DNA of 64,000 nt. Source: Escherichia coli. Its GTDB lineage: Bacteria; Pseudomonadota; Gammaproteobacteria; Enterobacterales; Enterobacteriaceae. Shown here piece by piece: positions 62,893 through 64,000 of this stretch. Position numbers and translations under genes: made by a program. Location: the NCBI RefSeq assembly GCF_050320075.1, contig NZ_CP190021.1; one strand, given 5' to 3'. The notes under the pieces are model-generated. The model saw nothing but the letters and a program-made list of their open reading frames with translations, was not told the origin of the DNA and made no database searches. Numbering within the stretch: position 1 is the first letter of the stretch; the number at the start of each line of letters is the position of its first letter.

Positions 62893-63230
62893 AGCAAAGG
62901 TCTCCGATGACAACTAAAAACGCTATCACCGAGTTCCTACGCTCATTGGTGATAGCCCAGACGGGGGTAGGAATACCGGCGTCATCGGAAACCGGCCAGG
63001 CTAATGCCTGCCCCGCCTGAGCTACCATAGATGACGACAAGAAATACAAGTTCCTGTCTTTATGGTATGGCAAAAAACGACGCCAAATGAAGAAATTAAC
63101 TTCTGCGCCGACGATGACTACGCGGGTTCCTACGCCCGATCACAGTTTTGCCTGTGACCAGTAAAGGGTACTTAGTATAACGCACCGAGTCAACTAACAG
63201 CTTAAAAAACATACAAAAAAGCGTCAAAAC

Positions 63231-63361
63231 TTAACGCTCCGCGCCGAAGCGATCCAGGCATGATGCTTCTGCTTTGTGGCGTTCGAACATGCTGGTCCAT
63301 ATGCACGAAACGGTGTCTGACCCTCGTCCAGACAATCCGCAGTTCTGACGAACATATGAAC
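63231..63361 (-). promoter_or_regulatory. bipartite conserved leader element, copy C, upstream of traA
   Basis: Box 1 ttaacgctccgcgccgaagcgatcca, box 2 ccgcagttctgacgaacatat. Confidence 0.5.
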
Positions 63362-63884
63362 AAATATGCTCTTGTAGAGGCTGTTGTTACACAATTGGCG
63401 GGTTGTGTAACAAATGGTTTTATCATCTAAGAATCATTCTATTTACGATCGAATGATCTACAAAATGATTTTTTAAAGGTTATTTAGATCGTTTAATTGC
63501 ATTAAAACAGAATATTATTCTGTTAGGTAGATCGGTTGTAAGATAAATGATCGTGAGTAGGATAAAAGTCGATCTTTTAATCCAAAAGAAAGATCTAAAG
63601 CAGAAAAATCTGCTTTTAAAAATAGATTTTATTTTTTTGACGCAGGTCAAGATTAACTTATTAGAGGTATCAGTGAGGAGGCACTGGAAGAGAAGAGATC
63701 GTTGTAATGCTTTTCAAATTAACGTAAAGCGGGTATATTTCGGCTGTTATTAGCTGTGCAGAGGGTGGCACTCTGTGGAGCAAAGCGGCGAAAGCCGGAC
63801 GGCAGAATGCGCCATAAGGCATTCAGGAGAGATGGCATGTACGGGCAGTAAGTCAGAAGACTGAAGATGTTCCGGAAGCCATAA

Positions 63885-63950: not shown

Positions 63951-64000
63951 GAATACGGGTAAAGTATAATGAAACCGTACCAGAGATTCAACCCTGTGCA

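Follow-up and report, generated by a model that had tools for sequence, protein, structure and literature searches.

In the control region of an IncI1 plasmid, eight GATC sites are crowded together on one face of the DNA helix, and their number, order and spacing recur in related plasmids. Consensus Lrp boxes accompany the array, and on a sister plasmid in living cells its sites are methylated unevenly. These observations support a functional Dam-related element in the divergent control region of the tra regulators and the rep gene. We propose that the eight sites make up a cis-regulatory element at which Dam and a DNA-binding protein, probably Lrp, compete for access, and which acts on a predicted leftward promoter (hereafter P_left) in a pap- or traJ-like manner, a reading that we consider about evenly balanced between right and wrong.

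The GATC array and its place in the IncI1 control region

The window, by which we mean the whole stretch of 64,000 nucleotides analysed here, ends in an IncI1 (I-complex) plasmid control region with a repZ pseudoknot leader, its antisense Inc RNA and the neighbouring traABC genes. The last 1.6 kb are 100% identical to IncI1 plasmids in which TraA, TraB (NusG-like), TraC and RepA are annotated, and about 1,300 PLSDB records cover at least 80% of this segment. The genes traC, traB and traA lie on the minus strand (traA, 62605‒62892). By Pfam, TraA is LuxR/sigma-70 region 4-like and TraB is NusG-like, and the small ORFs between traA and the array gave no match. On the plus strand, the Rfam match to the repZ leader pseudoknot region (63885‒64000; PK-repZ, RF01087, 144.9 bits) is cut by the window end, just past which repY and repZ start, and a promoter scan places the promoter of the Inc RNA gene, antisense to this leader, at 63991‒63963 on the minus strand. 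The best plus-strand candidate of a position-weight scan (TTTTCA, 17-bp spacer, TATATT; 63711‒63739) is presumably the promoter of the repZ mRNA. It stands at +196/+219 from the central box of the array described below, and the same offsets are repeated in IncB/O/K and in the Klebsiella plasmid pmk1. An earlier reading of this DNA from its letters alone (hereafter the sequence-only reading) had placed the cluster with the tra regulatory genes on one side and the replication-control leader on the other, and the gene map and the Rfam match agree with this placement.

The eight GATC sites start at 63447, 63455, 63487, 63530, 63549, 63571, 63592 and 63697, exactly as that reading had listed them. 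The density of eight sites in 254 bp, with seven in 150 bp, compares with 0.61 expected in 254 bp from the local composition (~30% G+C). This excess of about 13-fold makes the earlier estimate of eight times the random expectation a conservative one. The 64-kb window as a whole is poor in GATC (167 sites versus 266 ± 15 in shuffled sequences, 63% of expectation), and any other 254-bp stretch of it holds four at most. When 167 sites were placed uniformly at random, eight in 254 bp were reached in 0.06% of trials. Besides GATC, the AT-only TTAA is the sole palindromic 4-mer enriched at the cluster. CTAG occurs only four times in the 64-kb window.

Seven of the sites form the core array (63447‒63595, 26‒29% G+C), with spacings of 8, 32, 43, 19, 22 and 21 bp and a common helical face. 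The eighth (63697‒63700) follows after 105 bp, 11 bp upstream of the -35 element of the predicted repZ promoter, and is in helical phase with the array, 210 bp or 20 turns from 63487. Its position is not kept in IncB/O/K, where GATCs are found just downstream of the -10 element instead. For all eight sites, the Rayleigh R is 0.875 at a period of 10.5 bp (p = 0.0006), the best period tested within 9.5‒11.5 bp, and p is 0.002 when six periods are allowed for. The differently spaced array of a Salmonella locus (L009) is likewise phased (p = 0.009). No known RNA family in Rfam was found over the array itself. A coding explanation was rejected, as indels between lineages disrupt the ORFs (68 and 56 aa) that overlie the array, and so were iterons or longer direct repeats, the only recurring flanks being of the AGATCG type.

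Left of the array lies the Hft region of pESBL, which maps to 62915‒63184 of the window with the coordinates of PMC4288162. Transposon insertions in Hft raise pESBL transfer 20-fold, by a mechanism that the pESBL studies left open. In those studies traA expression is assigned to Hft, which lies 250 bp to the left of the array, and this counts against the reading proposed here. The array itself is mentioned neither in the pESBL papers nor in the I-complex TraDIS paper. Hft coincides with a phage P1/P7-type C4 antisense RNA (Rfam RF01695, 77.5 bits against a threshold of 45), upstream of which are sub-threshold a1b1-target and isrK-like matches. An annotated 'Hp1/ash' ORF, which matches Pfam Phage_ASH, overlaps the C4 RNA gene. 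The Rfam and ORF features of this region lie on the minus strand at 62945‒63032, 63073‒63158 and 63119‒63171, and no connection between Hft and a C4 RNA was found in the searched literature.

A search of the literature on IncI1, repZ, ColIb-P9 and pCol1B9 together with GATC, Dam, SeqA and Lrp, with older subscription papers outside its reach, yielded no account of the array. The GenBank records of ColIb-P9 (NC_002122), which carries the array, and pCol1B9 (CP002489) both start at a BglII site (AGATCT) at 63592, so that the array is split between the two ends of each record. This cut inside the element may be why it went unnoticed.

Methylation in vivo and conservation across plasmid lineages

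Published 6mA data are available for IncI1 pCol1B9 (CP002489) in S. Typhimurium 4/74, obtained by nanopore sequencing (bioRxiv 10.64898/2026.01.27.702048). They describe a sister plasmid in Salmonella and not the window's own plasmid. Since the GATC spacing of pCol1B9 across the record junction (309, 196, 8, 32, 43, 19, 22, 21 and 105 bp) is identical to that of the window, the mapping of the sites is exact. Methylation counts were taken from Supplementary Table 5 and pooled over four samples; the coverage is low, at ~30 reads per strand. In Supplementary Tables 5 and 10 of that study, the traA-repY intergenic region is among those with unmethylated or conditionally methylated sites, and the main text does not mention it.

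Methylation rises from left to right across the array. In the left three sites, methylated reads on the plus and minus strands were 4/31 and 4/32 (63447), 10/30 and 3/35 (63455), and 4/29 and 4/37 (63487), together 29/194 or ~15%, with 9‒33% per strand in both growth phases. The next site, 63530, showed 12/28 and 13/37 (25/65, ~38%). The right three sites, 63549 (20/27 and 27/34), 63571 (13/29 and 23/35) and 63592 (20/30 on the plus strand, the minus strand not being listed), together reached 103/155 or ~66%, with a range of 45‒79%. The flanking sites were methylated in 95/118 reads, ~81% (63251, 29/36 on the minus strand; 63697, 36/40 and 30/42, that is, 71‒90%), and site 63138 at 90‒100%. 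The difference between the left and right sites is highly significant (p = 2e-23). The authors call eight plasmid positions never methylated; six are the adenines of the left three sites, and the other two are at pefB. A similar pattern is seen in that table at pefB (pSLT), a known Lrp/Dam switch, and at opvAB, another known switch.

Since both strands are unmethylated at steady state, something blocks Dam at the left sites over several generations, as happens at sites of Lrp, OxyR, Fur and HdfR (PMC7708049). The left-half pattern is stable protection from Dam, and an array of which half stays unmethylated in living cells bears the mark of an epigenetic switch. The Dam-related role suggested by the sequence-only reading is thus upheld by the non-uniform methylation that the sites carry in vivo on pCol1B9.

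That reading had also made its case depend on conservation of the GATC positions in related plasmids, and their number, order and spacing do recur there. The clearest case is pmk1 (L014), whose TraB is 48% identical and whose rep gene is divergent: its GATC spacing of 22-19-43-32-8 is the exact mirror of 8-32-43-19-22. In the pmk1 alignment, the bases of the GATC sites are identical at 24/28 positions versus 66/146 (45%) of the other bases (p = 5e-5). IncB/O/K keeps three GATCs in place, has lost two and gained another in phase, and lacks the doublet. The doublet, one GATC, the palindromic box and three to four further GATCs are found in IncI2, Salmonella L009 and Citrobacter amalonaticus L030, at spacings that differ from those of the window. 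Where a lineage has lost GATCs, new ones in phase have taken their place. No 4-mer is more enriched than GATC over the 201-bp modules of six lineages (34 versus 3.3 expected, 10.4x), and the runners-up are its own overlaps, ATCG and AGAT being in excess because AGATCG-type flanks recur.

The array is absent from IncL/M and copB-type IncFII relatives and was not found in those replicons of Pantoea, Erwinia and Yersinia that share the antisense loop. Many IncFII-like replicons of Pantoea, Erwinia, Kosakonia, Cedecea and Yersinia (loci L022‒L050) carry a GATC pair 10‒14 bp apart, situated ~135‒210 bp upstream of the UUGGCG stem-loop of the antisense RNA. Judged from their sequences, these pairs hint at Dam-sensitive rep promoters across the IncFII-like replicon superfamily. 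The pESI-type megaplasmids of Salmonella Infantis combine the IncI1 tra regulators with seven of the eight GATCs at ~98‒99% identity (L005, 4548‒4791); the similarity ends at ~63690, just before the repZ promoter, with unrelated DNA beyond. Two further loci, L013 and L012, encode a TraB with 53% identity and have no adjacent rep gene, and L013 also shares the C4 RNA region. Both carry a GATC triplet or doublet only (7‒11 bp spacing; L013 586‒607, L012 601‒611) beside a small divergent gene, and neither has an Lrp-consensus box.

Lrp-like boxes and the predicted leftward promoter

The array is centred on a consensus Lrp box, CAGAATATTATTCTG (63508‒63522), which matches the E. coli Lrp consensus YAGHAWATTWTDCTR at 15/15 positions and also fits AGAATwwwATTCT. 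Both consensus sequences, the former from SELEX, are quoted in PMC5554404. The central box is the only exact match to the Lrp consensus in the 64 kb, where 0.01 would be expected. IncB/O/K, IncI2, an IncI1 variant and L030 carry it without a mismatch, and L009 with one. In pmk1, where the GATC spacing is kept, the central box has three mismatches, which counts against Lrp.

Weaker boxes flank the central one at a distance of 93 bp. The +93 box, AAGCAGATTTTTCTG (63601‒63615, minus strand), has two mismatches and lies inside a palindrome (63597‒63616). The -93 position (63415‒63429) is weak in IncI1, with five mismatches here, which again counts against Lrp; it is good in pmk1 (two) and in L009 and L030 (three). 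In a scan of all offsets from -130 to +200 from the central box over five lineages, the best mean Lrp matches after offset 0 were at +92/93 and -93, with 3.2 and 3.8 mismatches versus 6.7 ± 1.0. Boxes that differ in sequence between lineages keep the frame YAG-N9-CTR at -93, 0 and +93, and the next-best frame, a partial one, is at -62. In most lineages, the GATC centres are no more than ~5 bp away from positions ±31 and ±62 relative to the central box. A distance of 31 bp is three helical turns, the spacing that aligns Lrp dimers in pap and ilvIH. From this sequence evidence, we infer that Lrp is the probable binder. Other regulators, compared by eye with their consensus sequences, were rejected: the spacing is wrong for ArgR and OxyR, the orientation is reversed for LexA, and nothing in the box resembles a CRP or Fur site.

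The top minus-strand match in the position-weight scan is the predicted P_left (63436‒63463), with a -35 element TTGTAG (63463‒63458), a 16-bp spacer, a -10 element TAGAAT (63441‒63436) and a start at ~63429. Relative to the central box, the -35 element is at -52 and the -10 element at -74 to -79. The top leftward candidate has the same offset in IncB/O/K and IncI2, as has the second candidate in L009. GATC 63447 lies inside the predicted P_left spacer, and GATC 63455 abuts the -35 element.

At +17 to +46 the predicted P_left RNA would form a hairpin (63384‒63413, minus strand) with an 11-bp stem and the loop CCCGCCAA (z = -3.1). This 8-nt loop has seven bases in common with the Inc RNA loop, and those seven are complementary to the loop UUGGCGG of repZ stem-loop I. 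The leader loop co-varies with the rep loop: GUCGCCA stands against UGGCGAC in pmk1, and GCCUGGAA against UUCCAGG in IncI2, with 9 nt when flanking bases are included, whereas cross-lineage matches among the three loop types reach only 3‒5 nt. Related leader hairpins are found in L014 (~2340‒2375), L008 (~1797‒1821) and L009 (~1715‒1740). By complementarity, the leader hairpin may be a second, trans-encoded regulator or a decoy of the replication control loop. If real, it would link P_left to replication control, as the sequence-only reading had guessed.

A consensus scan places a predicted terminator-like hairpin with a T-run at 63218‒63240 (minus strand), ~200 nt downstream of the predicted P_left start. 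Since the pESBL studies put traA under Hft, P_left may yield only an RNA of ~200 nt that ends at 63240‒63218. Two overlapping terminator-like hairpins with T-runs can be drawn at 63218‒63251 on the minus strand, and antitermination is conceivable there because TraB is a NusG/RfaH-type protein.

Competing readings and comparison with known systems

Competition between Dam and a bound protein could work as follows. The central box (63508‒63522) would be a high-affinity Lrp site, the boxes ~93 bp to either side would be weaker ones, and the GATCs near ±31 and ±62 bp would lie where further dimers of an Lrp multimer touch the same helix face. In most plasmid copies, the protein would occupy the central box and the left half, covering the predicted P_left and keeping 63447, 63455 and 63487 unmethylated, while the right half is methylated. 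Replication or conjugative entry would produce hemimethylated or unmethylated DNA and reopen the race between Dam and the protein, and a minority of copies would then adopt the other pattern and fire P_left. P_left would read towards the transfer regulators, in IncI1 through a long leader and the C4-like module to traA/B/C and in IncB/O/K directly to traB. A link of the array to replication or copy number is possible.

A stronger form of this proposal would be a heritable two-state switch, in which the Lrp multimer pivots on the central box between an OFF state on the left set, the pattern seen in bulk, and an ON state on the right set. The choice would be reopened at each replication, above all on entry of a single methylated strand into a new cell, and the Inc RNA loop mimic in the P_left RNA would also feed the translational control of RepZ. 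We regard this extended version as doubtful. Cells newly infected with ColIb-type plasmids show a classic burst of high-frequency transfer, which such a switch, if true, would explain.

That the cluster arose by an accident of composition or history and serves no function is hardly credible: only the absence of a tested phenotype speaks in its favour, and the site excess, the phasing, the conservation of the GATC bases, the 4-mer enrichment and the methylation gradient in vivo speak against it. The same Dam-competition switch might instead use a protector other than Lrp, such as H-NS/Hha, a plasmid protein (TraA or TraC), RNA polymerase held at P_left or another host regulator. The methylation data show protection from Dam without naming the protector, pmk1 keeps its GATCs despite its degraded central box, and the 26‒29% G+C of the region would suit H-NS/Hha. 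In addition, deletion of lrp in pESI, which carries the same region, caused no significant change in pilV transcription (PMC5013300), and this counts against Lrp. However, four lineages retain the Lrp consensus exactly and a fifth differs from it at one position, and the boxes at ±93 bp keep the Lrp frame, so that a different protector seems somewhat unlikely to us. A plasmid-encoded one also has to contend with array lineages that share no one regulator set, IncI2 having a CaiF/GrlA-type neighbour and not TraB. Sequestration by SeqA, which would bind the hemimethylated same-face GATCs after replication and briefly shut repZ and/or the leftward promoter, we judge very unlikely. SeqA prefers same-face GATC pairs (PMC2691817), the array has a site density similar to that of oriC with all sites on one face, the turnover of sites at a kept density fits a reader of GATC alone, and the right-hand sites are only 45‒79% methylated. 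Hemimethylation should nevertheless leave ~50% methylation per strand and not the ~15% on both strands of the left sites, and the conserved Lrp boxes would go unexplained. To our knowledge, SeqA neither binds unmethylated DNA nor blocks Dam across generations. At the right-hand sites, SeqA may contribute.

The sequence-only reading had seen the cluster as the mark of a SeqA- or Dam-regulated promoter or origin. The Dam-related element has held up, and plain SeqA control fails at the left sites. That reading had noted neither the exact Lrp match in the middle of the array nor the predicted P_left beneath its left half. The origin reading fails as well, with no DnaA box (TTATCCACA) within one mismatch at 63300‒63800; the GATC flanks are not conserved as 13-mers either, so that an unwinding element was also rejected. 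The I-complex origin we take to lie downstream of repZ. The array might also serve mainly to tune the repZ promoter as an upstream Dam/Lrp-sensitive element, tying initiator synthesis to nutrients or recent replication and leaving the transfer genes as bystanders. This would agree with the adjacent RepZ-type rep gene in every deeply diverged array lineage, where the left neighbour varies, with the fixed +196/+219 position of the repZ promoter from the box, and with the GATC pairs that are common near rep promoters of related replicons. Yet of the two halves of the array, the protected one is more distant from repZ, and pESI keeps the array without the rep gene. The ColIb-P9 and pCol1B9 records begin at 63592, a hint, though no proof, that the left part was not included when the replicon was defined. 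We therefore hold a role mainly at repZ to be quite unlikely and return to Dam competing with a bound protein, probably Lrp, at P_left.

IncI-complex plasmids (IncI1, IncB/O/K/Z and IncI2) are major carriers of ESBL, AmpC and mcr-1 genes, and the repression of IncI transfer and its flare-up in new transconjugants are poorly understood. The array offers a concrete, mutable target and suggests that the nutritional state of the host, via Lrp, and the age of the DNA, via methylation, set transfer competence.

Two kinds of Dam-dependent element resemble the array in part. The SeqA clusters of oriC and the dnaA promoter share its GATC density and same-face phasing, but one half of the array stays stably free of methylation on both strands, DnaA boxes are lacking and the array is not the plasmid origin. 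The OxyR/Dam switches (agn43, gtr and opvAB) likewise have several GATCs with alternative methylated and unmethylated patterns. The OxyR half-site is ATAG-N7-CTAT; it does not fit the array boxes, which are YAG-N9-CTR with 9-bp spacing.

The likeness to pap (and to pef, sfa and daa) is closer. GATCs would lie within phased putative Lrp sites upstream of a promoter, here a predicted one, and methylation is missing from the GATCs close to that promoter and present at those farther away, as in the OFF state of pap. However, pap has two GATCs (GATC1028 and GATC1130) 102 bp apart, whereas the array has seven to eight, with one exact-consensus central box and flanking boxes at ±93 bp. The target here is a plasmid transfer and replication control region and not a fimbrial operon, and the array has no sequence homology to pap. 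ACGATC is a sequence known in connection with PapI, and among the local ORFs from traA to the array, Pfam revealed no PapI-like protein.

The other close parallel is traJ of the Salmonella virulence plasmid pSLT, where one GATC is involved and not many as in the IncI1 array. Here too, host Lrp (putative in our case) and Dam would act upstream of the promoter of a conjugation master regulator, and competence for transfer would depend on how DNA is methylated just after replication or transfer. According to the account in PMC5013300 of Camacho and Casadesus (2002), Lrp activates traJ at its upstream activating sequence and Dam modulates this activation. The plasmid with the array is of the MPF_I/I-complex type and pSLT is F-like, with unrelated genes and sequence, and the promoter of the array is divergent from a replication initiator gene. 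As proposed, the array would work like the control of pap/pef and of pSLT traJ but is a member of neither family.
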